From an uncultured Acidimicrobiales bacterium (GTDB taxonomy: Bacteria > Actinomycetota > Acidimicrobiia > Acidimicrobiales > CAZWDB01): DNA of 24,000 nt. The first letter of the stretch is position 1, and the number at the start of each line of letters is the position of its first letter. The DNA lies in NCBI GenBank assembly GCA_964632885.1, contig CAZWDB010000001.1:93462-117461 (forward strand), read 5' to 3'. Shown here piece by piece: positions 3,073 to 22,287 of this stretch. Under the pieces are notes generated by a model. It searched no databases, was not told the origin of the DNA, and worked only from the letters and a program-made list of their open reading frames with translations. The position numbers and the translations under genes are program-made.

Positions 3073-3642
3073 CTATCCCCGGGCTGACGATTCCGGTGCA
3101 GGAACGCGCCAGTAGCGGCCGTGGTCGCGCTTGAGGTAGCCGTGGTCGATGAGGAGGCGGCGGAGGAGTGCCCAGTCGCTGTACCAGCCGTAGAGGATGG
3201 TGTTCACCTCACGCTCGGAGTACACCTCGTCTGGTTGAAAGTCCTCGGCGATCACGTCTAGGAACACCCTGACCGCCCAGGGTTCTGATGGCATCGCGAC
3301 GAGGCGGTTTCGGTACAGGTAGCGCCGCGCAAGCTGGGTGTGTTGGTCGTTGAGAGCTCCAACCCGCAACGTGGCGGCATCTCGGACTGACCGGGCGAAG
3401 ACATCACCATCTAGGGAGTACACACCGTCGTGGTTCTCGATGAGCCGGGCCGCCTCGAGACGCGCTAGATGTTCAAGGATCGCTCGTGGTGACGCCTCGA
3501 CGGCCGCGATCAGGTCGTCCGTCGTGCGGTCTTTCTCGTCGAGGACGGCAATTATGTGACGCCGGTGCGGGTCGGCGAGCAACCCCACGATCTCCTCCGG
3601 GGCAGGCGCGCGATCTGGAAGGCGTGCGGGAGGGCCAGGCAT
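3073..3642 (-). CDS. ArsR-like winged-HTH + DUF2087 domain protein
   Basis: N-terminal LLADPHRRHIIAVLDEKDRTTDDLIAAVEASPRAILEHLARLEAARLI is an ArsR-type wHTH. C-terminal FQPDEVYSEREVNTILYGWYSDWALLRRLLIDHGYLKRDHGRYWR is the DUF2087 pattern. Confidence 0.7.
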   Translation of the reverse strand: MPGPPARLPDRAPAPEEIVGLLADPHRRHIIAVLDEKDRTTDDLIAAVEASPRAILEHLARLEAARLIENHDGVYSLDGDVFARSVRDAATLRVGALNDQHTQLARRYLYRNRLVAMPSEPWAVRVFLDVIAEDFQPDEVYSEREVNTILYGWYSDWALLRRLLIDHGYLKRDHGRYWRVPAPESSARG

Positions 3643-3690
3643 GGGAGAAGGTTAACCCTCTATAACGTAGGATGACGTATCTTTTCGCGT

Positions 3691-4122
3691 ATGGACGAGA
3701 AGCTCATCTTCTATACGTCGGCGGAGGTCGCCGAGATGCTGCGGCTCCACGTCCAGGTGGTGCAACGGAAGCTGCAGGCAGGTGAGATACCCGCCTACCG
3801 GATCGGAAAGGAGTGGCGCGTCGAGCGCGGCCAACTACTCGAGTGGCTCGAAGAACACTCGAACCAGCGCGCCCGACCACTCGCGAATCGATGGTTCGAT
3901 CGGGAAGGCCGCCTCAAGGCGATGCCGTCGCAACGAGCGAAGCGGCGCGCGGTTCTTGAACGCATCGGCGAACGATTCGAGCCGGGCCGGGCCTACCCCG
4001 AACGAGAGGTCAACGCCGTGCTCCGCCTCGTGTTCGACGACACCGCTTACCTACGTCGGGAACTAGTGGCTGAACGGATCCTCCGGCGGAGCAAGGGCGT
4101 CTACCACCGCCCGCTCGGATGA
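3691..4122 (+). CDS. Excisionase/MerR-type HTH + DUF2087 domain protein
   Basis: N-terminal YTSAEVAEMLRLHVQVVQRKLQAGEIPAYRIGKEWRV is the Xis-family HTH_17 pattern. C-terminal FEPGRAYPEREVNAVLRLVFDDTAYLRRELVAERILRRSKGVYHR is DUF2087 and paralogous to the divergent neighbour. Confidence 0.7.
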   Translation: MDEKLIFYTSAEVAEMLRLHVQVVQRKLQAGEIPAYRIGKEWRVERGQLLEWLEEHSNQRARPLANRWFDREGRLKAMPSQRAKRRAVLERIGERFEPGRAYPEREVNAVLRLVFDDTAYLRRELVAERILRRSKGVYHRPLG

Positions 4123-4138: not shown

Positions 4139-6328
4139 GTGGCTGAGCCCCCGGTACCGGCATATCGTGCCCCCATGGCGATCGCGATTTCCGATGACCA
4201 CCGGGCCCTGGCGAGCACCGCCGCGGAGTTCCTTCTGAAGCGAGAGGCGCGCCGCTCGTCTCGTGAGCTCCTGGAGGCCGAGACCGAGCCGTTGCCGCCG
4301 ATGTGGGATGACGTGATCAACCTCGGCTGGCTGGGCCTCCACTTGCCGGAAGAGTACGGAGGCTCTGGGTACGGGATCGAGGAGCTCGTCGTGGTGGTCG
4401 AGGAGCTGTCGAAGGCGGTCGCACCGGGTCCGTTCGTACCCACCGTGATCGCGAGCGCGGTGATCGCCGCCAAGGCGGACGAGGCCACCAAGAAGCGACT
4501 TCTTCCGGGTTTTGCGGCCGGAGAACTTACCGGCGCAGTTTCACTCGAAGGATCGGTGTCGGTGAAGGGAGGGTCCGCTTCTGGCGATGCGGGCGTCGTG
4601 CTTGGCGGCGGTCTCGCCAAGGTCTTCCTGGTGGCGGCGGGCGACGACGTGGTGGTTGTAGAGGCGGGCGAGGGGGTCGCGGTCGACGTCCCGCGCAACA
4701 TGGACCCGACCCGTCGAAGCGCGCGAGTCATGCTCGACAAGGCACCGGCCACCGTGATTCCGGGCGGTCACCGCCTCTTGGTCGACCTTGCCCGAGTGAT
4801 CCTGTCTGCGGACGCGGTCGGTCTCGCCCGCGAGTGCACCGACATGGCGGCCGGATACGCGAAGGAGCGTCTCCAGTTCGGTCGAGTGATCGGCACGTAT
4901 CAGGCTGTCAAGCACCACTGCGCCAACATGGCTGTCGCGACCGAACTCGCAACGTCCGCCGTGTGGGACGCGGCGCGCGCCGCGGCGACGGGCGGCGACC
5001 AGTTCACCTACGCCGCGGCAGTCGCCGCGACCCTCTCGGCTCCCGCGGCCGACCTCTGCGCCAACCTCAACACTCAGGTGCACGGCGGCATCGGCATGAC
5101 CTGGGAGCACGACGCCCATCTCTTCATGCGGCGGGCGACCAGCCTGCTCGGCTTCCTCAACCCAGCGAGCGCGGCCGCCGAAGTCACCGACCTCGCACGG
5201 CGCGGAGTGGAGCGGGCCCGTGCGGTTGAGCTGCCGCCGGAGGCCGAGGCGATCCGCAGCGAGGTCCGTACGTTCGCGGAGCGCATCAAGGACCTGACGG
5301 CCGATGAGCAGCGGGCGGAGCTCATTGAGACCGGCTACGTCAACCCCGCCTGGCCGCGTCCCTACGGTCGGGAGGCCGGCGCGGTCGAGCAGCTCGTGAT
5401 CGAGCAGGAGTTCGACACGGCAGGCATCCGCCGGCCCGGATACGGCATCACGGGCTGGGTGATCCTCACGCTGATCCAATACGGCACCGACGACCAGATC
5501 GCCCGTTGGGTCAAGCCGGCCCTGAACCAGGAACTGACCTGGTGTCAGCTGTTCAGCGAGCCCGACGCGGGCTCTGACGCGGCCGGCATCAAAACCCGCG
5601 CGAAGCGCGTCGACGGCGGCTGGTTGGTCAACGGCCAGAAGGTCTGGACGAGCGGCGCCCACGTCGCCGGCATGGGCTTCGCGACCGTCCGCACCGATCC
5701 TGACAAGCCCAAGCACGACGGCATCACGATGATGGTGATCGACATGCATGCCGAAGGGGTCGAGGTGCGGCCGCTGCGACAGACGTCGGGCCAGGCCTCG
5801 TTCAACGAGGTCTTCTTCAATGATGTCTTCGTGCCTGACGACGACGTCGTCGGACCAGTGGACGGAGGTTGGACCGTGGCCCGGGCGACGCTCGGCAACG
5901 AGAGCGTGAGCATCGGAGGCGGTCGGGGCGGCATGACCGCACAGGCCGCCACGATGATCAAGAATTTCGACGCCCAGCCCGATCGCCTGGTTGGTGGTGC
6001 CACCCGGATCGGTCGCTACATCGCGGGCAACCAAGCACTCGGACTGCTCAACCTGCGCAGCGCGCACCGCGCCGTTGCAGGAACCGAGCCCGGACCGGAG
6101 GGCGCGATCACCAAGCTCGTCTCCTCTGAGCTCGGACACGAAGCCGCCGCGATACTGACCGAGCTCAACGGCACCGCGGCCGCCTTCATGGACGGCCCCA
6201 GTGCGACGAGCAACGGGCTCGTGCTCATGCACCGCGGCATGTCGATCGCGGGCGGCACATCCGAGATCAAGCGCAACCAGATCGGCGAGCGCATCCTCGG
6301 CCTACCTCGGGACCCGCTCATCAACTAG
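4139..6328 (+). CDS. Fused two-module acyl-CoA dehydrogenase
   Basis: 729 aa with two ACAD-like halves. The first carries YAKERLQFGRVIGTYQAVKH and VHGGIGMTWEHDAHLFMRRA. The second carries CQLFSEPDAGSDAAGIKTRA, WLVNGQKVWTSGA and the C-terminal IAGGTSEIKRNQIGERILGLP. Start is uncertain: GTG 4139 or ATG 4175. Confidence 0.85.
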   Translation: MAEPPVPAYRAPMAIAISDDHRALASTAAEFLLKREARRSSRELLEAETEPLPPMWDDVINLGWLGLHLPEEYGGSGYGIEELVVVVEELSKAVAPGPFVPTVIASAVIAAKADEATKKRLLPGFAAGELTGAVSLEGSVSVKGGSASGDAGVVLGGGLAKVFLVAAGDDVVVVEAGEGVAVDVPRNMDPTRRSARVMLDKAPATVIPGGHRLLVDLARVILSADAVGLARECTDMAAGYAKERLQFGRVIGTYQAVKHHCANMAVATELATSAVWDAARAAATGGDQFTYAAAVAATLSAPAADLCANLNTQVHGGIGMTWEHDAHLFMRRATSLLGFLNPASAAAEVTDLARRGVERARAVELPPEAEAIRSEVRTFAERIKDLTADEQRAELIETGYVNPAWPRPYGREAGAVEQLVIEQEFDTAGIRRPGYGITGWVILTLIQYGTDDQIARWVKPALNQELTWCQLFSEPDAGSDAAGIKTRAKRVDGGWLVNGQKVWTSGAHVAGMGFATVRTDPDKPKHDGITMMVIDMHAEGVEVRPLRQTSGQASFNEVFFNDVFVPDDDVVGPVDGGWTVARATLGNESVSIGGGRGGMTAQAATMIKNFDAQPDRLVGGATRIGRYIAGNQALGLLNLRSAHRAVAGTEPGPEGAITKLVSSELGHEAAAILTELNGTAAAFMDGPSATSNGLVLMHRGMSIAGGTSEIKRNQIGERILGLPRDPLIN

Positions 6329-11423: not shown

Positions 11424-12845
11424 TCAGAAGAAGACGTGGTCTGTGTAGATCCCGGTGTGCTGGGCGTCGTCGGGGATCCGGGCGCTCGTCCCTGTGTTGA
11501 AGCGGTACGCCTCGACCGTGCTCTTCATCTGCCGTAGTAGAGGCTGGCCACGAGAGCCGCGTGAGGTGAAGATCGACAGTTGGTCGATGCCGCGTTCGTC
11601 GAGGGCGGTACTCCACGCTCCGAGCAGCTGCCGGAACGCGTCGTCGGCACCATCGACGAAGCCGTAGTCCATGACGTGGCCCCGCCGGCTCCGGGTGACC
11701 TCACCGTCGCGCTCCGTCACGACCTGGACCTTGTTGCCTGCGGGCCAGATTCCGAGCACGGCTCCGTCGGCGAGGAGCACCTCGTCCCACGAGTAGAGCG
11801 GGTCCCGCTCGAGGCGCTCGACGAAGGACTGCTCGGTGTAGGGGAGGTAGAACTCTTCGCCGTCGTGGAAGGTGTTGAGGATCTCGACGATCTCGGGGGC
11901 ATCAGCGCGGGTGGCCCGCCGAACGCCACTGGCAGTCGTGGCAAGCGAGGCGGTCGGTAACAGGAGGCGGTAGACGGTCGGCACCCACTCGCGTGCCACG
12001 AAGTCCGGCCGGGACTGGACCTGTTCGGCGACATGGGACCAGGCGGGGTTCTCGATCATGAAGTACCCGACGTAGAGATCCGTCCTTCCGCGGTAGCGCC
12101 ACCAGACCGCGTTGTCGAAGGCGCCCCACAGTCCCTTCCGCTGGTGTTTGGGCAGGATCCGAAGGTGGATGAAATACGTGGTACGGGCTTCCTCCCCGCC
12201 GAACTTGGTGCGACCGCGGGCGCCCCATGCCACACCAGCCGGTTCGCCCTCGACTTCGGCGATGCAGACCATCACGTCTTCCATCAGCCGCGCGGCGGCA
12301 AAGTAGTCGTCGCCCCGGTCGGTAGCGATGCGCGTGTCACCCAGCACCACCGGAGCACCGCGCTCGATCTCAGCGAGTGTCGCGGCGTCGTCGGCCGTTG
12401 CCTCGCGGATCTGTAGGTCGAAGTCGAAGACGCGCTCCCACCTCTCGACCTCGATGCGATGAGGCTGACTCTCCTCAACCATGAAGGTGATCTTCTGGCG
12501 GTGGCCCTTCTCAGGAGCGAGCACGACGGCGACCTCGCTCGGGGACGACTCCTCGATCGACTGGATCGAGAACGGGCCGAATCCGTTCCAGTCATCGATC
12601 CACTTCCTCCGACCTTCGTCGTCGCCTTTGAACCAAGGCGACTGGGGCCACATGTCGACGTAGCGGCTGAGGACGTCGGCTGCCGACAACGTCTCGGGAC
12701 GCTCCACTCCGTCGAGCCACCACGCGAGCTGATGTCCAGCAGGAGTGTCGGGAATGTCCGGTCTATCCACACCGGAAGGGTTGTGGCCGTGGCGCCTGGA
12801 TGCAACTGATTTGCTGGCGCGATCGGGTTGCGGAAGTGCGAGCAT
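11424..12845 (-). CDS. Multidomain protein with tandem GNAT-like acyltransferase domains
   Basis: 473 aa. Two segments start IREATADDAATLAEIE and VRRATRADAPEIVEILN, as GNAT domains do. A HQRKGLWGA-type acyl-CoA loop is present. The N-terminal roughly 130 aa (HQLAWWLDGV...) resemble Cpe/LpqF-type N-domains. Domain calls are pattern recognition only. Confidence 0.55.
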   Translation of the reverse strand: MLALPQPDRASKSVASRRHGHNPSGVDRPDIPDTPAGHQLAWWLDGVERPETLSAADVLSRYVDMWPQSPWFKGDDEGRRKWIDDWNGFGPFSIQSIEESSPSEVAVVLAPEKGHRQKITFMVEESQPHRIEVERWERVFDFDLQIREATADDAATLAEIERGAPVVLGDTRIATDRGDDYFAAARLMEDVMVCIAEVEGEPAGVAWGARGRTKFGGEEARTTYFIHLRILPKHQRKGLWGAFDNAVWWRYRGRTDLYVGYFMIENPAWSHVAEQVQSRPDFVAREWVPTVYRLLLPTASLATTASGVRRATRADAPEIVEILNTFHDGEEFYLPYTEQSFVERLERDPLYSWDEVLLADGAVLGIWPAGNKVQVVTERDGEVTRSRRGHVMDYGFVDGADDAFRQLLGAWSTALDERGIDQLSIFTSRGSRGQPLLRQMKSTVEAYRFNTGTSARIPDDAQHTGIYTDHVFF

Positions 12846-12877: not shown

Positions 12878-13459
12878 ATGACGTCGATGTATCACGAGGG
12901 CTCTCGCGCCCTCCAAGACCGGTTTGACAGCCGGAGGATCGCCGACCGGTTGGAAGAGGTGGTCGTCCACGAGGAGTTCTCGTCCGGCGACAAGGAGTTC
13001 ATCGAGCGATCGCCGATGTTCTTCCTCGCCACCGCAGACGCGGACGGTTGGCCCGACTGCTCCTACAAGGGAGGGATGCCAGGCTTCGTGCGGGTGGTCG
13101 ACCCGACAACGCTTGCCTTCCCGAGCTACGACGGCAATGGCATGTTCCGGAGCCTCGGCAACATCGCCGTGAACCCGAAGGTGGGGCTCCTCTTCCTCGA
13201 TTTCGAAAAGCCGAATCGGACGCGCGTGAAGGGGACAGCGGCGCTCCATTACGACGACGAGCTGCTCGCCTCCTTCGAGGGAGCGCAGCTCATCGTGCGT
13301 GTCACGGCCGAAGCGATCTTTCCGAACTGTCCGCGATACATCCACCGGATGGAGCTGGCCGAATACTCGGTGTATGCGCCGCGCGCAGACCACACACCGC
13401 CGGTTCCCGACTGGAAAGAGATGGAGGTGTTCCGGGATCACCTTCCCCGGCCGCGCTAG
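12878..13459 (+). CDS. Pyridoxamine 5'-phosphate oxidase-family FMN-binding split-barrel protein
   Basis: MYHEGSRALQDRFDSRRIADRL...ERSPMFFLATADADGWPDCSYKGG.PGFVRV...FPSYDGNGMFRSLGNI..NP.VGLLFLDF...R.RVKG is a recognisable PNPOx-like family. ATG 12878 is preceded by the SD GGGAGGG. Confidence 0.7.
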   Translation: MTSMYHEGSRALQDRFDSRRIADRLEEVVVHEEFSSGDKEFIERSPMFFLATADADGWPDCSYKGGMPGFVRVVDPTTLAFPSYDGNGMFRSLGNIAVNPKVGLLFLDFEKPNRTRVKGTAALHYDDELLASFEGAQLIVRVTAEAIFPNCPRYIHRMELAEYSVYAPRADHTPPVPDWKEMEVFRDHLPRPR

Positions 13460-13486
13460 ACGACAGCGTCGCCGCCGCGGGCCCAA

Positions 13487-13906
13487 CTAGCCGGGTTGCG
13501 TTCCGGTGACCCAGGCGAACTGCCACGTGTCGGTGTATTGCCGGAATGATGCGAGCTTGCCGGCACGGATCCCCCAGATGTGGCAGACCTGGGCGTCGAG
13601 AGGGTCTCCCGTGTTCGCTGCCTTGGCCCGGTAGCGGCCCTCGACGATGACGACTTCTCCCGCGTCGTGGAACCCGAAGGGATCGACCTCAAAGCTGTCG
13701 AAGCTGTCGGGGATGCGGGCGAACACGTTCGCAAGAACTGCGGCCGGACCATGGTGGCCGCCGGCCGCATGCCAGAGCGAGTGCTCGGCCTCGTCCCACG
13801 AGATGTCTGGGTCCATGGCGTTGACGACGGCGTCGATATCGCCGCGGCTGAACGCTCCGTAAGCGTCCTTCACGAGACGGACGTTCGGTGAAGTGGTATC
13901 GGTCAT
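13487..13906 (-). CDS. SnoaL-like / NTF2-fold protein
   Basis: VRLVKDAYGAFSRGDIDAVVNAMDPDISWDEAE...VIVEGRYRAKA..TGDPLDAQVCHIWGIRAGKLASFRQYTDT is the ketosteroid-isomerase-like pattern. I prefer ATG 13906 to 13957. Confidence 0.65.
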   Translation of the reverse strand: MTDTTSPNVRLVKDAYGAFSRGDIDAVVNAMDPDISWDEAEHSLWHAAGGHHGPAAVLANVFARIPDSFDSFEVDPFGFHDAGEVVIVEGRYRAKAANTGDPLDAQVCHIWGIRAGKLASFRQYTDTWQFAWVTGTQPG

Positions 13907-15474: not shown

Positions 15475-15523
15475 GAACTTGAGGCAATAACGATCGGATT
15501 CCGATCGTTATTGCCTCAAGTTC
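15475..15523. repeat. Palindromic intergenic element, copy 1 (49 bp: 24-bp arms, central T)
   Basis: GAACTTGAGGCAATAACGATCGGA-T-TCCGATCGTTATTGCCTCAAGTTC, a perfect inverted repeat. It lies between the yiaA-like stop (15562) and the Ddn-like start (15435). Confidence 0.9.
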
Positions 15524-15561
15524 GGCCGGCGGATGGTGGGGGTGATAGTGGGGGTGGGGGT

Positions 15562-15852
15562 TCAGGCGGCGGCGGTGAAGGGGTCGTGGTCGGACAGGAA
15601 GCGTTCGAGACGCGCCTCGTCGACCCGATGGACGACGGTGCTGGCCTCGTGCTGGTCGCGGACGCACTTGGCGAGAGTGAAACTCGACGTCACCGTGTAG
15701 AGGAGTCCCACCGCCAGGAACGAGCGGGTCCAGCCGGGCACGGGCAGATAGGCGATGCCCAACAGCACTCCCGTGATCGAGACGCCGAACGAGATCGCAG
15801 ACTGCGCGAAAAACGCCGACGTGGGCTTCTGGTTGATGGTTATGGCTGACAT
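15562..15852 (-). CDS. YiaA/YiaB-family small inner-membrane protein
   Basis: 96 aa with two predicted TM helices (FFAQSAISFGVSITGVLLGIAYL; RSFLAVGLLYTVTSSFTLAK) followed by CVRDQHE, as in the YiaAB two-helix domain. Confidence 0.6.
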   Translation of the reverse strand: MSAITINQKPTSAFFAQSAISFGVSITGVLLGIAYLPVPGWTRSFLAVGLLYTVTSSFTLAKCVRDQHEASTVVHRVDEARLERFLSDHDPFTAAA

Positions 15853-15952
15853 GGGACGAGCATGCGCCCCTCTCGTTCAGCGCACCATCCGGATTTGCCC
15901 CCAAAAGGTCCCACGGAACACCCCAAAGCTCGACCAGAGCCACGCCCGGCTC

Positions 15953-16001
15953 GAACTTGAGGCAATAACGATCGGATTCCGATCGTTATTGCCTCAAGTT
16001 C
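15953..16001. repeat. Palindromic intergenic element, copy 2 (49 bp, central T)
   Basis: Identical to copy 1 at all 49 positions. Its right end overlaps the typA stop codon (16000-16002) by 2 nt. Confidence 0.9.
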
Positions 16002-17823
16002 AGCCGGCGCGGGGTGCGGCGCGGCGGCGGTCGGACTCCTTCAGCCGCCGCTTCCGGATCCGGAGGTCGGTGGGGGTGATCTCGACGAGCTCGTCGTCAG
16101 CGATCAGCTCGATCGCGGATTCGATCGTGAGGACGCGGGGTGGCACCAGCTTGATTGCCTCGTCGGACGCGTGGGTCCGGATGTTGGTCTTCTGCTTCTC
16201 GCGGACGATGTTGACGACCATGTCGCCCGGGCGGCTGCTCTCGCCCACCACCATGCCCTCGTACACCTGCTGGCCGGGGCCGATCAGCATCTCACCCCGT
16301 TGCTGCAGGTTTCCCAGCGCGTACGACGTCGCAGTGCCGGTGCGGTCCGCGACGAGCGCGCCGCCCCGGCGATGAGGGAGGTCGCCGGCCCACGGGCCCC
16401 AGCCGCGATGGCGGGTGTGGAGGAGCGCGGTGCCACGCGTCGCGGTGATGGCCTGAGACCGGAACCCGAGCAGCCCGCGCGCGGGTGCTTCGAAGCTCAG
16501 GATCGTGCGACCGTGATCGCCCGGCCTCACGTCATGCACCACGCCCTTGCGCGGCGCGAGCGCCTGAGTGATCGTGCCGGCAAACTCGTCGGGGACGTCG
16601 ACGATGCCTTCCTCGATGGGCTCGTGCCGCCGCCCGTCGACCTCGCGCGTGACGACCTCCGGCCGGCTCACCTCGAGCTCGTATCCTTCCCGCCGCATCG
16701 ACTCGATCAGGACCGCCAGCTGGAGCTCACCCCGGCCGGTCACCTGTAGGACGTCGGCGGAGGAAGTGTCGTCGACCCGGATCGCGACATTGCCAAGCAC
16801 CTCGCGGGCCAGACGCTCGCGAAGGTGCCGAGATGTGAGGAACTTGCCGTCGCGTCCCGCTAGGGGTGACGTGTTGACGCCGAAGGTCATGCGGAGCACC
16901 GGCTCGTCGACAGTAAGACGGGGGAGCGGATCGGGATCGGCTGGGTCGGCCACTGTGTCGCCGATCTGCACTTCCGGGAACCCGGCGAGGACGAACAGGT
17001 CGCCCGCCTGGATCGTGTCGGCTTCGCGCCGGCCGAGGCCGTCGATCGCAAGCAACTGGGCGGGACGTCGAGTGACCCCCGCACCGTCCGCGTGCACGAG
17101 CGTCACGGCGTCAGCAGCACGGAGCGTGCCTCGCACGACTCGGCCGATGGCGAGACGTCCGAAGTAGTTCGAGGCGTCGAGGTTCGTCACGAGCGCCTGG
17201 AGCGGCGCCTGACTGTCGCCGATCGGCGCCGGCACCGTACGGAGAACCGCGTCGAGCAAGGGCGCGAGGTCGGCGTCGGCGGCTGGCATGCCGACGCCGT
17301 CCATGGCCCTGCCTTCCCTCGCGATGGTGGAGACGACCGGGAACTCGATGTGGCGGTCGGCGACCTCGAGGTCGAGGAAGAGCTGGTAGAGCTCGTCGAG
17401 CACAGCGTGGGGACGGGCGTCGGCACGGTCGACCTTGTTGAGTACGACGACGGCGGGGAGGTCCGCAGCCACCGCCTTCGAAAGCACGTAGCGGGTCTGG
17501 GGAAGCGGTCCCTCGGCGGCGTCGACCAAAAGCAGCACACCGTCGACCATCGCCAAGGCCCGCTCCACCTCGCCACCGAAGTCGGCGTGGCCGGGAGTGT
17601 CGACGAGGTTGATGGTGATGCCCCGCCAGGGGACAGAGGCCGCCTTGGCCAGGATGGTGATGCCCCGTTCCCGCTCCTGGTCGTTCGAGTCGAGAACGCG
17701 ATCGACGGCCTGCTGGTTGCGTTGCAGCACGCCTGTCTGGCGGAGTATGGCGTCGACGAGCGTGGTCTTACCATGGTCGACGTGCGCCACGAGGGCGACG
17801 TTTCGGAGGGGGGCGGCATCCAT
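16000..17823 (-). CDS. typA: Translational GTPase TypA/BipA
   Basis: RNVALVAHVDHGKTTLVD (G1), DTPGHADFGGEV (G3), LNKVDR (G4) and colinear EF-G-like domains with the BipA C-terminus. I prefer ATG 17823 (MDAAPLRNVALVAHVDHGKTT). The ORF-track start 17874 lies inside palindrome copy 3. Confidence 0.95.
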   Translation of the reverse strand: MDAAPLRNVALVAHVDHGKTTLVDAILRQTGVLQRNQQAVDRVLDSNDQERERGITILAKAASVPWRGITINLVDTPGHADFGGEVERALAMVDGVLLLVDAAEGPLPQTRYVLSKAVAADLPAVVVLNKVDRADARPHAVLDELYQLFLDLEVADRHIEFPVVSTIAREGRAMDGVGMPAADADLAPLLDAVLRTVPAPIGDSQAPLQALVTNLDASNYFGRLAIGRVVRGTLRAADAVTLVHADGAGVTRRPAQLLAIDGLGRREADTIQAGDLFVLAGFPEVQIGDTVADPADPDPLPRLTVDEPVLRMTFGVNTSPLAGRDGKFLTSRHLRERLAREVLGNVAIRVDDTSSADVLQVTGRGELQLAVLIESMRREGYELEVSRPEVVTREVDGRRHEPIEEGIVDVPDEFAGTITQALAPRKGVVHDVRPGDHGRTILSFEAPARGLLGFRSQAITATRGTALLHTRHRGWGPWAGDLPHRRGGALVADRTGTATSYALGNLQQRGEMLIGPGQQVYEGMVVGESSRPGDMVVNIVREKQKTNIRTHASDEAIKLVPPRVLTIESAIELIADDELVEITPTDLRIRKRRLKESDRRRAAPRAG

Positions 17824-17859
17824 AGGGGGGTTCCGCAGCGTACAACGCGCGTGCCCTAC

Positions 17860-17912
17860 CCGAACTTGAGGCAATAACGATCGGAATCCGATCGTTATTG
17901 CCTCAAGTTCGG
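17860..17912. repeat. Palindromic intergenic element, copy 3 (49-bp core 17862-17910, central A; stem extended by CC/GG to 53 bp)
   Basis: CC-GAACTTGAGGCAATAACGATCGGA-A-TCCGATCGTTATTGCCTCAAGTTC-GG. All 48 stem positions match copies 1 and 2. It contains the stop codon of gene 17903..18925. Confidence 0.9.
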
Positions 17913-18925
17913 TCGAGTCGGTGGTGGAAGGGCAACGCTCCTGACAGTTGCGGCGAGGCTGCCAGCTGCCGAGAGAGACGGTGCGACAGGCGTTCCGACG
18001 CGGGTTCGCCCAGGTGGGTGTAGTCGAGGAAGTCCGCGTTGCTGAAGCCGTCGCTGACGTCGAGGAAGTCGGCGTCGAAATCGGCGGCGAGCTGGCGGGC
18101 CTTCTGGCGTGCGAGCACCTCCATCCCCGGGTGGGGCAGGAGCTCGAGGAGTCGATCCGGGACGGGGAGCCAGGCGATCACGACCGTGATGCCGCGATCC
18201 TGGAGCTCCTCGATCGTCCGCCGGGCACTCGCCACCATCGTTCCGCCGACGTCGAAGTCGGAGACCACCTGGGCGCGCACGCGGCGTCGCTCGGCTTCTG
18301 TCGGGGTGCGGTCCGCTGGCTGGCGCTGCCCGTCGTGCCGGATTACCGAGCGGATCGCCTCCATCTTGGTGCGGTTCGCCCATGCGTCCGGATCGACGAG
18401 TTGACGCCGGTAGCGGAAGATGCCGGAGCGTTTGGCCAACCAGCGTTCCGCCTCGGCGAGGCGACCCGGTCGAGTGGCGTGGGCGGACTCATAGGAGTCG
18501 ACCACGCTGAGGTCGCGACCGTCGTTGAGGTCGAGCACCGACATTCCCCACACGACTACGTCGGCTTCGACGTTGTCGAGCACGGGGTCGAGCAGCCAGC
18601 GTTCCTGAATCGGTGGGACACCGGCCGGGACGGCTGCGTTGTAGCTCTTGGTGCCCAAAGTCTCGTCGATCACCCGCGGTCCGATGGCGTAATAGCTCTG
18701 CGAGGTTCCCGTGAAGAGGATGTCGAGCTCGGTGCCCTTCATGCCGCGCAGCTGTTCGGCCTTGGCCTGCGCGATGTCGTGGTACCAGTTGCGGGGCTCG
18801 GGGAGCAGCGCGCCGAACAGGCGGACGGCGATCTCCGCGACGAGCAACACCGCGACGAAGCCCGCGGTCATGCGCCTGATGGGGCGCGGTATTGACGAGA
18901 GCCGGTCGACGGCGAGTGCAGTCAT
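17903..18925 (-). CDS. Membrane-anchored SGNH/DltD-like partner of the MBOAT acyltransferase
   Basis: 340 aa. N-terminal anchor MTAGFVAVLLVAEIAVRLFGALL. Candidate block I ILFTGTSQSYY and C-terminal DxxH (DFLDYTHLG). The ATG overlaps the MBOAT stop by 1 nt (TGATG). Assignment rests on weak motifs plus context. Confidence 0.5.
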   Translation of the reverse strand: MTALAVDRLSSIPRPIRRMTAGFVAVLLVAEIAVRLFGALLPEPRNWYHDIAQAKAEQLRGMKGTELDILFTGTSQSYYAIGPRVIDETLGTKSYNAAVPAGVPPIQERWLLDPVLDNVEADVVVWGMSVLDLNDGRDLSVVDSYESAHATRPGRLAEAERWLAKRSGIFRYRRQLVDPDAWANRTKMEAIRSVIRHDGQRQPADRTPTEAERRRVRAQVVSDFDVGGTMVASARRTIEELQDRGITVVIAWLPVPDRLLELLPHPGMEVLARQKARQLAADFDADFLDVSDGFSNADFLDYTHLGEPASERLSHRLSRQLAASPQLSGALPFHHRLDRT

Positions 18926-20346
18926 CAGAACTGGAAGTAGAAGAAGGGTTCGGGGGCGGCGCCACTGAACAGGACGAGAAGTGTCACCGCACTGCCGGCC
19001 ATCGCCCCGGTGAAGGCCGGGACGTTCTGGGGAGCGCGAACCATTGTTGGACGCGTGCGGTGCACAAGGTCGATGCCGAAGAGCATCAGGGCGGCGACCG
19101 TGACGACGACCAGGTCAGCGGCCGCCTGGAAGTCGAGGCCCCACGATCCGGTGACGAGCTTGCTGAACACCCCCCCGGCGTTGCCGAGCGTGCCGGCGCG
19201 GAAGACGACGAGAGCGAGACAGTGGATCGCGAAGGTACGGAGGATCAGCGGCCACTCGCGGGCGCGTGGCAGACCGCCCTCCGTACCGTCATACACGGTC
19301 GCTCCCCGAAGACGCTCGCCCGCAAGGATCAGCCCGTGGATCAGACCCCATAGAACAAAGTTCCATCCCGCGCCGTGCCAGAGGCCGCCGAGCGTCATCG
19401 TGATGATCAAGTTGCGGTAGGTGCGGGCGTTACCGTGGCGGTTCCCGCCGAGGGAGATGTACACGTACTCCCGCAACCAGTCGGAGAGCGAGATGTGCCA
19501 GCGGCGCCAGAACTCGGTGACGTTGCGCGCCAGGTGGGGTTGACGGAAGTTGACCACCAGCTCGATTCCGAGCAGTCGAGACGTGCCTCGGGCGATGTCG
19601 GTGTAGCCGGAGAAGTCGCCGTACACCTGGAGAGCGAAGCCGACGACTGCAACGGCCACCGGAACGAAGCCCAAATCGGCGGCGCCGCCATAGCCGCGGT
19701 CGACGATCGGAGCGACGGTGTCGGCGATCACCACCTTCTTGACGAGGCCCATCAGTACCAACGTGATCGCCGACATCACCTGCTCCGTCCGAACCCGGGG
19801 CCGGGGAGCCCGCAGTTGGGGAAGCAGGTGTGTCGCCCGTTCGATGGGACCGGCGACGAGTTGGGGGAAGTAGGCGACGTAGAGGGCGAACGTCGTCAGG
19901 TCACGCTCGGGGTCGAGGCGGCCGCGGTAGACGTCGACGGTGTAGGAGATCGTCTGGAAGGTGTAGAAGCTGATGCCGACCGGCAAGATCACTTCGAGCA
20001 GTGGCGGGTTCGGGGCGAGCCCGAAACGCTCGAGGAAGACGCCGGCCGAGGCCACGAAGAATCCGGCGTACTTGAAGAAGCCCAGGATCCCGAGATTCAC
20101 CGCGATGCTGGTGAACAACAGTTGCCGGCGTTGGCGCTCTCTCGTTTCGACGCCCAGCCGCCGCCCGACCACGAAGTCGACCGCGGTCGAGAGCCAGATC
20201 AGGCCGAGGAAACGCCAGTCCCATCCCGCGTAGAAGAAATAGGACGCGACAAGGAGCAGCCGCTGTTGGGTGCGATGACCGCACCGCCAGTACAGCGCCA
20301 GCACTGTGGGAAGGAAGATCGCGAACGCGAGGGAGTTGAAGAGCAT
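18925..20346 (-). CDS. MBOAT-family O-acyltransferase (AlgI/DltB-like)
   Basis: 473 aa, polytopic. MLFNSLAFAIFLP..., GISFYTFQTISYTVDVYRG, YFPQLVAGPIER, FWRRWHISLSDWLREYVYI.LGGNR (conserved His) and LGGLWHGAGWNFVLWG. Confidence 0.9.
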   Translation of the reverse strand: MLFNSLAFAIFLPTVLALYWRCGHRTQQRLLLVASYFFYAGWDWRFLGLIWLSTAVDFVVGRRLGVETRERQRRQLLFTSIAVNLGILGFFKYAGFFVASAGVFLERFGLAPNPPLLEVILPVGISFYTFQTISYTVDVYRGRLDPERDLTTFALYVAYFPQLVAGPIERATHLLPQLRAPRPRVRTEQVMSAITLVLMGLVKKVVIADTVAPIVDRGYGGAADLGFVPVAVAVVGFALQVYGDFSGYTDIARGTSRLLGIELVVNFRQPHLARNVTEFWRRWHISLSDWLREYVYISLGGNRHGNARTYRNLIITMTLGGLWHGAGWNFVLWGLIHGLILAGERLRGATVYDGTEGGLPRAREWPLILRTFAIHCLALVVFRAGTLGNAGGVFSKLVTGSWGLDFQAAADLVVVTVAALMLFGIDLVHRTRPTMVRAPQNVPAFTGAMAGSAVTLLVLFSGAAPEPFFYFQF

Positions 20347-20454
20347 CAGGGAGACCTGTGTTCACCCTGCCGGGGGCGTGGCGCTCTTACCCTACGATCG
20401 GCCAGTCGAACCGCCGTGCCTTTACACGGCAAAGTCCGCGGGAGGGAGCAAGGG

Positions 20455-20970
20455 GTGCCGGTAAGGGCTGTCGGAGGGCGAACGCCGCGGATCGCGGAGT
20501 CCGCATGGGTGAGCGAGGGCGCCTACGTCGTCGGTGACGTGGAGCTGGGGGAGGGGTCGAGCGTGTGGCCCGGCGCGGTGATCCGGGGCGACTTTGCGTC
20601 GATAACGATCGGGTCCAACACCCACGTCGAGGACAACGTGGTGATCCACTGCGGTGAAGACATGACGATCGGCGACAACGTAACGATCGGTCACGGGGTC
20701 GTCGTGCACGGGAGGCGGGTCGGGAACAACTGCCTTCTGGGAAACAACTCGACGATCCTCGACCGGTCTGAGATCGGCGATGCATGCATCGTCGGGGCGG
20801 GCGCGCTGCTACTCGGCGACACGGTCGTGCCCGACGGTTCTTTCGTTGTCGGCGTGCCAGCCACCGTGCGGCCGGGACGGCCCGACCAGGCCGAGCGGAT
20901 GCGCCGCCGAGGTAGGTCCGAAGGTGGGTACGCCTCAATGATGAAGCTCTATAAGAGCGAGGGCCTGTAG
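20455..20970 (+). CDS. Gamma-carbonic-anhydrase-like left-handed beta-helix (hexapeptide repeat) protein
   Basis: 171 aa from GTG 20455 (SD GGGAGGGAG upstream). AWVSEGAYVVGDVELGEGSSVWPGAVIRGD...ITIGSNTHVEDNVVIH...IGDNVTIGHGVVVHG..VGNNCLIG matches the YrdA/PaaY-like pattern. The upstream 1 kb of ORF-track entry 19375..20970 is antisense to the MBOAT gene. Confidence 0.8.
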   Translation: MPVRAVGGRTPRIAESAWVSEGAYVVGDVELGEGSSVWPGAVIRGDFASITIGSNTHVEDNVVIHCGEDMTIGDNVTIGHGVVVHGRRVGNNCLLGNNSTILDRSEIGDACIVGAGALLLGDTVVPDGSFVVGVPATVRPGRPDQAERMRRRGRSEGGYASMMKLYKSEGL

Positions 20971-20999
20971 CCATCGATGAGGACCGAGCCGTCGACGCG

Positions 21000-21806
21000 G
21001 TGCCGATCGATGATCCTGACGACCCCCGCCTCGTCGATTACCGCGATCTGACCGACGCCGAACTGCGGGCGCGCCGCGAGGCGGACGAGGGCCTGTTCGT
21101 TGCGGAAGGGGTTCACGTGATTCGCCGCCTGGTGCGATCGGCCTATCCGGTGCGTTCCGTGCTGGCGGCACCGCGCAAGCTCGAGGCCATGCGTGACGAT
21201 CTGGCAGGACTCACGGCCCCCGTCTACGTCGCGAGTCAGCACGTGTTGAACGGGGTCGTCGGCTTCAACATCCACCGCGGCGCGGTGGCGGTCGCCGGTC
21301 GTCTGGCGCCTCAGCGGGCGGAGGCTGTGGCGGCGGACGCGGCGCGGGTCGTGGTGGTCGAGGGGATGACCGATCAGGAGAACCTCGGCCTCATCTTCCG
21401 CAACGCGGCCGCACTCGGCATCGATGCGGTGCTGCTCTGCCCGCATACCTGCGATCCGCTCTACCGCCGGACGGTGCGGGTGTCTATGGGTCATGTCCTG
21501 GCCACGCCGCACGCACGGTTTGTCCGCTGGCCCGACGGTCTCGACGACCTGACCGCGTCGGGGTTCAAGACGGTCGCCCTGACCCCGGACCCGAGCGCGG
21601 TCGCCCTCGACGCCGTCGACCCACGCCCAACGGACAAGGTCGCCTTATTGGTCGGCGCCGAGGGTCCCGGCCTGACGCCGGGCGCGATGGCCCGGGCCGA
21701 CGTCCGCGTCCGCATCCCGATGGCTGCGGGCGTCGACTCCCTCAACGTCGCCGCCGCGGCCGCGATCGCCTTCCACCACTTCCGCCCGCCGAACTTGAGG
21801 CAATAA
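21000..21806 (+). CDS. TrmH/SpoU-family RNA 2'-O-methyltransferase
   Basis: 268 aa. GLFVAEGVHVIRRL, NLGLIFRNAAALGIDAVLL, LLVGAEGPGLT and IPMAAGVDSLNVAAAAAIAFHH (SPOUT knot motifs). The last four codons and the stop (NLRQ*) are supplied by palindrome copy 4. Confidence 0.85.
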   Translation: MPIDDPDDPRLVDYRDLTDAELRARREADEGLFVAEGVHVIRRLVRSAYPVRSVLAAPRKLEAMRDDLAGLTAPVYVASQHVLNGVVGFNIHRGAVAVAGRLAPQRAEAVAADAARVVVVEGMTDQENLGLIFRNAAALGIDAVLLCPHTCDPLYRRTVRVSMGHVLATPHARFVRWPDGLDDLTASGFKTVALTPDPSAVALDAVDPRPTDKVALLVGAEGPGLTPGAMARADVRVRIPMAAGVDSLNVAAAAAIAFHHFRPPNLRQ

Positions 21807-21841
21807 CGCACGGATTCCGCGCGTTATTGCCTCAACTTCGG
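21789..21841. repeat. Palindromic intergenic element, copy 4 (diverged variant)
   Basis: CC-GAACTTGAGGCAATAACGCACGGA-T-TCCGCGCGTTATTGCCTCAACTTC-GG. It has five substitutions relative to copies 1-3 and contains the stop codons of both convergent flanking genes (TAA 21804-21806 on +; TGA on - at 21832-21834). Confidence 0.8.
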
Positions 21842-22287
21842 TTGAGGTGCTGGTTGAGGCGGCCCCCGGCGCGGCGGATCTCCTGGCGGAGGATGCGGTC
21901 GAGGCCGGGCAGCCACCCGGATCCCCCGTAGTGCAGGTCCATACGAACCCGGCAGGTGCCGGCAGCATCGCTGGAGTCGTGGTCGATCGCGGCGCTCAGA
22001 GTCCAGGGACTGTGCGATTCGCCGTCGTGCTCCCGTCGCTCGAAGCGCACGCGGACGTCGGGTTCGTGGATCGTCCTCACCATCCTGACCCGTTTTGTGC
22101 GGCGGACCGGGCCGAGGCGCGCGCCGAGGTCGACGAACCACGCCGGCCCCGCGTCGTCTTGATGGGCGGTGGCCGACGAGACCTCGACCACGATGCCGAG
22201 CCACGCCGGGTAGGTGCCGAGATCAGCGATTACCGCAAAGGCGCGGTCGGCGGGGTGCTTGAGGTCGGCGCGCCCGTAGAGGTCCAC
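21832..22287 (-). CDS. SRPBCC-family (polyketide cyclase/dehydrase-like) protein
   Basis: 151 aa. ADRAFAVIADLGTYPAWLGIV...W.VDLGARLGP..R.KRVRMVR matches the small SRPBCC ligand-binding pattern. Confidence 0.65.
   Translation of the reverse strand: MDLYGRADLKHPADRAFAVIADLGTYPAWLGIVVEVSSATAHQDDAGPAWFVDLGARLGPVRRTKRVRMVRTIHEPDVRVRFERREHDGESHSPWTLSAAIDHDSSDAAGTCRVRMDLHYGGSGWLPGLDRILRQEIRRAGGRLNQHLNRS

Follow-up and report, generated by a model that had tools for sequence, protein, structure and literature searches.

Four palindromes of 49 to 53 bp lie at gene boundaries in a 24,000-nucleotide stretch of the genome of an uncultured Acidimicrobiales bacterium (assembly GCA_964632885.1, contig CAZWDB010000001.1, positions 93,462 to 117,461), which is referred to here as the window. 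The locus raises the question of what kind of element they are and why they stand where they do. We found that they belong to a dispersed, multi-copy family which forms genome-specific subfamilies, is located at the 3′ ends of genes, maintains base-pairing between its arms, and has long been retained at one convergent gene junction. The family is real and apparently uncatalogued, and it belongs to a known kind of element, the conserved palindromic repeats at gene ends; it is distinguished by carrying stop codons within both arms and by the retention of structure, as against turnover of sequence, seen at one orthologous site. On balance, we lean towards the interpretation that it is a lineage-restricted, dispersed palindromic repeat of the Acidimicrobiales, comparable to the repetitive extragenic palindromic (REP) sequences and to the mycobacterial TRIT ("Tuberculosis Rho-independent terminator"), which would be copied at the DNA level and may act at RNA 3′ ends.

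Four palindromes carrying stop codons

Scanning of the window with the 18-mer GAGGCAATAACGATCGGA gave exact matches on both strands at 15481–15517, 15959–15995 and 17868–17904, and a further pair with 2 mismatches per arm at 21797–21833; 8 arm matches were thus observed versus 0.03 expected from shuffled sequences. An inverted-repeat search delimited copy 1 at 15475–15523 (24 bp, a central T and 24 bp, 100% complementary) and copy 3 at 17860–17912 (26 bp, a central A and 26 bp, 100% complementary), which scored 81.6 and 86.2 bits, respectively, with the covariance model R1 described below. Copy 2 at 15953–16001 (24 + 1 + 24, perfect, with a central T) was the same as copy 1 over all 49 nt. Both searches therefore confirmed what an earlier inspection of the letters without database searches (the sequence-only reading) had claimed, namely four palindromes, three of them with identical stems around the centres T, T and A; its estimate of arms with about 46% G+C in a richer background was also correct (11/24 versus 66.6% in the window). 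Perfect stems extended by CC/GG, which it had described for copies 3 and 4, were found in copy 3 with its 26 bp, but not in the diverged copy 4 (21789–21841), where the 26-nt arms are 92% complementary and the stem contains two mismatches, C.C and A.C on the plus strand. A longer outer stem or a target duplication was considered and rejected, as beyond the C/G or CC/GG pairs there is no more than an enrichment of C in the left flank and of G in the right one. A partial match at 20583–20612, within the hexapeptide gene, was not recovered by R1 and was treated as chance.

Folding as RNA gave −43 to −57 kcal/mol for the four copies (z-scores of −8 to −13), with −49.8 kcal/mol (z −10.6) for copy 1, −57 kcal/mol (z −12.9) for copy 2 and −49 kcal/mol for copy 3, and the four most stable 60-nt folds in the whole 24 kb were the four copies. 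As had been noted before, no U-tract or T-run follows any copy in the window on either strand, and a terminator scan detected no canonical terminator-like sites above chance in the region. An unrelated hairpin (−33 kcal/mol) was also noticed at 13441–13500, between convergent PNPOx-like and SnoaL-like genes, indicating that other convergent pairs in this genome use hairpins from outside the family.

The sequence-only reading had placed every copy precisely between genes, which proved to be incorrect, since three stop codons lie inside the palindromes and the stop codon of typA overlaps copy 2. Each arm, read 5′ to 3′ on either strand, carries a TGA (in CTTGAGG) and a TAA (in CAATAAC), the frames of which differ. 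Along the minus strand, the MBOAT and DUF1574 genes are followed by copy 3, typA, copy 2, the YiaAB gene, copy 1 and the F420H2-dependent quinone reductase gene, and copy 4 is situated between the convergent SpoU (plus) and SRPBCC (minus) genes. The DUF1574-like gene (17903–18925, minus), the last gene of the MBOAT pair, uses the TGA of copy 3 (17903–17905) as its stop. Copy 4 encodes the last four codons (NLRQ) and the TAA stop (21804–21806) of the SpoU-family methylase gene (21000–21806, plus), the Pfam domain of which is complete at residue 258 of 268, as well as the last two codons (RS) and the TGA stop (21832–21834) of the SRPBCC gene (21832–22287, minus), so that the two convergent stops are only 25 nt apart. 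The typA gene (16000–17823, minus), which encodes a translational GTPase and is bracketed by copies 2 and 3, ends with a TGA (16000–16002), the GA being the last two bases of copy 2 (2-nt overlap); since the stop codon of typA has the same position in a relative (L008, see below), copy 2 starts exactly at the native stop. The YiaAB-domain gene (15562–15852, minus; PF05360, 5.8e-19), bracketed by copies 1 and 2, has its own stop, and copy 1 is located 38 nt downstream of it and 39 nt upstream of the quinone reductase start. Copy 3 ends 38 nt upstream of the typA start; a −35-like TTGCCT in the arm was examined as a promoter element serving typA and rejected, because the nearest TANNNT is about 26 nt away and the spacing is too long. 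The gene names proposed earlier were supported by Pfam matches (MBOAT, DUF1574, YiaAB, F420H2 quinone reductase, SpoU methylase and SRPBCC) and, for TypA, by homologues bearing that name; one database protein is 100% identical to TypA, and the next homologues are proteins from Acidimicrobiales metagenome-assembled genomes (MAGs).

Counting the window and the related loci together, the adjacent gene ends are all within 40 nt of the palindrome (17/17), and in 11 of these 17 the stop codon is inside or overlaps it. Copies of the family occur only at gene 3′ ends.

A repeat family with genome-specific cores

When related metagenome and MAG contigs (designated L001 and so on) were scanned for the pattern and individual loci were looked up, at least 11 further copies were found beyond the four in the window, these counts being lower bounds; the suggestion that the palindromes are a repeat family with counterparts in relatives was thereby substantiated. 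The model R1, built from 13 copies, recovered all copies at 30–86 bits and nothing else in 125 kb. One MAG contig (L001) contained a copy identical to window copies 1–3, five short metagenome contigs (L003–L007) contained six copies, L008, L013 and L014 had one each, and L015 had one diverged copy. L001 is labelled as a Burkholderiales MAG, although its copy equals window copy 3, and may be mis-binned. Contigs were found to start or stop at or inside the palindrome in L001 (nt 7), L005 (nt 73), L004 (nt 136 and 82 nt from the end) and L014 (at the contig end), as is expected of multi-copy repeats, which break assemblies.

Two loci contained compound arrangements. At 1027–1125 of L002, an Acidimicrobiaceae MAG, one copy is nested in the loop of another, forming a long coaxial hairpin of −65 kcal/mol; the inner copy has GAGGCAATAAC in both arms and an innermost sequence unlike that of the window family, and the outer arms are diverged, one of them also containing GAGGCAATAAC and the other differing from it by one base. 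L004 possesses a decayed copy (56–118) in tandem with an intact one (136–184), and the right flank CAAGTTCGGCTGG is duplicated, which suggests a local duplication of the element plus its flank. Copies were absent beside typA in L008 and L009, beside DUF1574 in L008, in the typA relatives at about 81% identity (L010 and L011), and in the more distant SRPBCC loci L016 and L017; the density is 4 copies in the 24-kb window and none in L009–L011. It was also observed that in L006 (506–1775) genes for RES-domain and PIN-domain toxins converge on the palindrome, two toxin-antitoxin-like modules being arranged tail to tail.

Alignment of the copies defined the unit as CC-GAACTTGAGGCAATAAC-(variable, self-complementary core of about 15 nt)-GTTATTGCCTCAAGTTC-GG. 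The outer 17 bp, GAACTTGAGGCAATAAC, are invariant or nearly so in 13 copies and are usually extended by C/G or CC/GG, whereas the inner 3–6 bp vary between genomes with their complementarity kept. Three types of core were distinguished: 1) GATCGGA-W-TCCGATC in the window, 2) GCGCGGA-A-TTCGCGC and its relatives in the Ga0299907 and Ga0214471 metagenome contigs, and 3) AACCGAA-A-TTCGGTT in L013 (AACCGAAATTCGGTT). Within the second type, three copies from the Ga0299907 metagenome have the core CGCAAATTCCGCG in common and one has CGCGGAATTCGCG, the latter being present in reverse orientation in the Ga0214471 copy (L006). A genome or sample tends to have a variant peculiar to it, present in several identical copies. 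These identical copies per genome, the genome-specific subfamilies and the differing presence or absence at loci in relatives agree with the REP-like nature that had been put forward among other candidates.

In the alignment, 94% of the cells are paired and four inner pairs have changed on both sides; the observed covariation score was reached by none of 500 shuffles, and slid controls were 31–43% paired. Covariation and slid controls together indicate that pairing is maintained, and not just sequence.

Rfam, phage, plasmid and viral collections, as well as a literature string search, gave no real match to the element, in keeping with the view that it is not a named repeat family. A mycobacterial palindrome of the same kind (L012, described below) is likewise without a match in Rfam, and thus the negative result of Rfam says little about the window family. 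Read-through translation of the element (ELEAITxGxRxLLPQVR), searched as a tripled profile against a protein database, returned nothing at E ≤ 10.

The SRPBCC–SpoU junction in five genomes

The palindrome was present at the junction of the SRPBCC and SpoU genes in five genomes, i.e., the window, L014, L008, L013 and L015, in which the SRPBCC gene is 94% (L014), 76% (L008), 76% (L013) and 72% (L015) identical to that of the window at the nucleotide level. As far as the TGA, codon-by-codon collinearity was seen among the window, L014, L008 and L015, from which it follows that the junction copy has been inherited and is of old date. In the window, L008 and L013, 33–34 of the 34 outer-arm positions agree with the consensus, a much higher level than the 76% found for the neighbouring gene. 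The arms of L015 have drifted and agree at about 26/34; its hairpin nevertheless remains exceptional (z −6), and the two genes end at homologous positions, with TGA and TAG. L013 contains a flawless consensus palindrome with a new core, and the flanks are shorter by 11 and 7 nt, as a consequence of which both genes use the other stop frame; this copy looks like a replacement or re-insertion. We take it that what is locally retained at the junction would be the hairpin with its stops, and that the consensus would be maintained by copying at the level of the family wherever the family is active.

SpoU lies between the hexapeptide gene and the palindrome in the window, L013 and L015. L008 has lost SpoU by a deletion (L008 4021–4042 versus window 20967–21790) but has kept the palindrome, together with about 16 nt from the 3′ end of the gene. 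Rearrangement mediated by the palindrome was considered and rejected, since the deletion ends about 16 nt outside the palindrome and the context of typA varies among all relatives anyway.

Relation to known elements and possible role

The closest published analogue is TRIT, which has been reported as restricted to Mycobacterium; its 147 copies are palindromic and bidirectional and begin within the coding sequence, about 8 nt from the end, and their conservation is not explained by the hairpin alone (Gardner et al. 2011, PMC3152330). Like TRIT, the window family is a conserved-sequence stem-loop in a high-G+C actinobacterial genome poor in canonical terminators, is multi-copy, bidirectional and tied to gene termini, and shows a sequence conservation that hairpin function alone does not account for. 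It also starts inside the coding sequence, as in GAACTTGA the TGA stop ends 8 nt after the palindrome begins, which was found for DUF1574, SRPBCC and the HRDC gene of L007. Among the candidates listed in the sequence-only reading the REP-like one stood, and this analogue, together with the supply of stop codons by the element, had been overlooked. Unlike TRIT, the window family has its own sequence and its own clade, the Acidimicrobiales. A mycobacterial palindrome that is probably of the TRIT type was located at 1499–1561 of an M. ulcerans plasmid record (L012, NZ_CP083743.1): arms of 21 nt, CGCGAGCAGACGCAAAATCGC...GCGATTTTGCGTCTGCTCGCG, start about 10 nt after a stop, between convergent genes, and fold at −54 kcal/mol. 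Its arm lacks internal stops, whereas the arms of the window family carry TGA and TAA. R1 gave no match to it, and homology between the two was rejected, because the 9/12 identity of GAGGCAATAACG and GACGCAAAATCG is at chance level (p = 0.13).

With REPs and their paired form, the REPINs (REP doublets forming hairpins; Bertels and Rainey, PMC3337134, PMC3116915), the window family shares conserved inverted arms around a variable middle that keeps pairing, extragenic copies, per-genome families, persistence and turnover within lineages, and the lack of target-site duplications. A REP unit has an imperfect palindromic core and a conserved head, which is GTAG in the classical groups. In contrast, neither GTAG nor any other recognisable head occurs in the window arm GAACTTGAGGCAATAAC, and palindromes within this arm do not exceed 3 bp; the unit is 49–53 bp with a middle of about 15 nt, compared to a spacer of 34–110 bp in REPINs; and the element overlaps stop codons, whereas REPs lie cleanly outside genes. 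REPs number tens to hundreds of extragenic copies per genome and flank a single-copy gene for a REP-associated tyrosine transposase (RAYT). No gene for a RAYT or another HUH enzyme was found in the window or the fetched loci, which, for the window, bears out the earlier statement that GTAG head, transposase and RAYT are all missing there. The alternative that the palindromes are miniature inverted-repeat transposable elements, also raised earlier, found no support, as there are no target-site duplications at the 13 copies and the unit is only 49–53 bp with no internal sequence between the arms. The tail-less, I-shaped terminators described for actinobacteria resemble the element in being stable hairpins at gene ends without a U-tract, but are defined by structure and have unrelated sequences, whereas the element is a repeated sequence family; their activity is disputed (PMC3993855; bioRxiv 10.1101/2022.06.01.494293). 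A canonical, L-shaped terminator has a G+C-rich hairpin and a U-tract of 7–9 nt, the latter being missing at the window copies.

By analogy, it is possible that RNA from either strand folds into a hairpin of 23–26 bp which marks the mRNA 3′ end. Such a hairpin might make RNA polymerase pause or terminate in the absence of a U-tract, possibly assisted by Rho or NusG, might block 3′-to-5′ exonucleases, or might do both, and could insulate tandem and convergent neighbours where the region has no canonical terminators. REP hairpins in RNA stabilise the upstream mRNA by acting as a barrier to 3′ exonucleases, and, since a barrier needs no U-tract, we consider such a role for the element at least as likely as termination. 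The previously suggested role as a tail-less terminator or 3′-end stabiliser thus fits in location, and as to function it is one that we infer. For this local role the sequence of the outer arms should not be needed; their near-invariance may instead result from copying, by new insertions, replacement or gene conversion, leaving no target duplication, and the obvious candidate for the copying activity would be an HUH/RAYT-type enzyme acting on single-stranded hairpins.

Several points weigh against this interpretation. Regarding copying, neither target-site duplications nor flanking direct repeats were found at any of the 13 copies, there was no clean pair of empty and filled sites among the loci compared, and no transposase, recombinase or integrase gene was present in the window or any fetched locus. 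The covariation is based on few independent events. Three identical copies within 2.4 kb of a MAG could reflect an error of the assembler in the order of the segments; each single junction between gene and palindrome is real despite possible mis-joins among copies 1–3. The role of the hairpin in RNA, either as terminator or as 3′-end protector, rests on inference, and the missing U-tract counts against a simple terminator, the RNA polymerase of mycobacteria reportedly needing one at intrinsic terminators (mBio, PMC3993855). Term-seq in M. tuberculosis assigned only 2–4% of the mapped 3′ ends to predicted TRITs, and likewise only 2–4% to I-shaped hairpins (bioRxiv 10.1101/2022.06.01.494293). 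In addition, because stop codons lie in the 5′ arm, the terminating ribosome must melt the stem.

It is unlikely, though well conceivable, that the palindrome is a purely selfish mobile element without host function, in which case insertions elsewhere would be lethal in a compact genome and the built-in stops would make insertions at last codons tolerable. Such a view would be consistent with the identical copies per genome and genome-specific subfamilies, the nested copy in L002, the decayed tandem copy in L004, the lack of copies at the ends of typA (L008 and L009) and of DUF1574 (L008), and the fresh consensus copy of L013, where flanks shortened by 11 and 7 nt are re-insertion-like; it is less easily reconciled with the persistence of the SRPBCC–SpoU copy down to 72% nucleotide identity, with the lack of a mobilising gene or target duplication in the window and the loci, and with the drifted L015 copy, which keeps the hairpin and both stops, suggesting that the structure itself is retained. 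That same copy, having lost the consensus and kept hairpin and stops at the same junction, also argues against the arms being a recognition module for a sequence-specific factor, which could be RNase III, a protein that binds double-stranded RNA and acts in termination or processing, or one that binds DNA hairpins, with identity reflecting selection and not mobility. We regard this as quite doubtful, as no candidate factor was identified and copying accounts better than selection for the contig breaks and for subfamilies of identical copies peculiar to one genome, even if the outer 17 bp are invariant in 13 copies from several genomes while the genes are 76–94% identical and a perfect duplex of at least 23 bp is a plausible substrate of RNase III. 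A factor of this sort was suggested for TRIT by Gardner et al. (PMC3152330). A further possibility is a self-propagating "gene-end cassette", a hairpin with stops in both directions whose invariant 17-bp arms would be read by a dedicated factor, either a domesticated hairpin-specific HUH enzyme or a double-stranded RNA-binding termination or processing protein, which we consider rather unlikely.

Site-specific recombination sites marking gene cassettes, like the attC sites of integrons or Xer/dif, would explain why typA and yiaA are each bracketed by identical copies and why gene order differs from that of L008 at these boundaries, and attC sites can also contain stop codons. This explanation is nevertheless very improbable: the cores RYYYAAC and GTTRRRY are missing, since neither CAATAAC nor GTTATTG conforms to them; the perfect palindromes offer no extrahelical bases by which a strand could be marked; the window and the loci contain no gene for an integrase or recombinase; typA has a housekeeping function; and in L008 the loss of SpoU stops about 16 nt short of the palindrome. 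To an operator for a dimeric DNA-binding regulator we give hardly any credence. Copies 1–3 are palindromic and lie about 39–101 nt upstream of the next gene start, but copy 4 and its orthologues are flanked by convergent genes, where there is no promoter for a regulator to act on, half-sites of 24 bp each are far longer than typical, and the variable positions stay complementary, which is not required of a protein-binding site. Next to no probability attaches to an inverted pair of uptake sequences, which had been offered earlier by analogy with the DNA uptake sequences (DUS) of Neisseria and the uptake signal sequences (USS) of Haemophilus. Those pairs are likewise conserved, inverted and able to form hairpins at gene ends, but DUS and USS are short motifs that also occur singly, inside genes too and in thousands of copies. 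Nothing of this kind was seen in the window family: there were no lone arms (with up to 2 mismatches) in the loci examined and no further R1 hits in the 125 kb, the only isolated arms there belonging to the decayed and nested copies; no copy lies inside a gene; the density is low and patchy (4 in 24 kb, none in L009–L011); and the unit far exceeds the known uptake sequences, which have 10–12 nt.

Canonical terminators are rare in high-G+C actinobacteria, and there is still debate about the way in which genes end in these bacteria. A second, unrelated family of conserved-sequence hairpins on stop codons, from another class of the phylum, provides an independent case alongside TRIT. It allows one to ask whether such elements are terminators, RNA stabilisers or tolerated mobile DNA, and whether their conservation stems from a binding factor or from copying; the SRPBCC–SpoU junction, where the copy of one lineage has drifted and others have fresh copies that match the consensus, is a natural experiment in this respect. 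Were the "gene-end cassette" true, it would point, together with TRIT, to a general actinobacterial way of defining gene ends by sequence-specific hairpins where canonical terminators are scarce. On the practical side, the repeats break metagenome assemblies and alter the called C-termini of neighbouring genes.

Two further observations were made outside the family. In L008, typA is followed by an IMS/DinB polymerase gene, directly upstream of which lies a palindrome, GCGAACGTGTGTTCGC (11468–11486), resembling an actinobacterial SOS box. In the window, at 3073–4122 and 4139–6328, a divergent pair of helix-turn-helix (HTH)-DUF2087 genes was noticed, and next to it a gene for a protein of 729 aa that contains acyl-CoA dehydrogenase domains in two sets.

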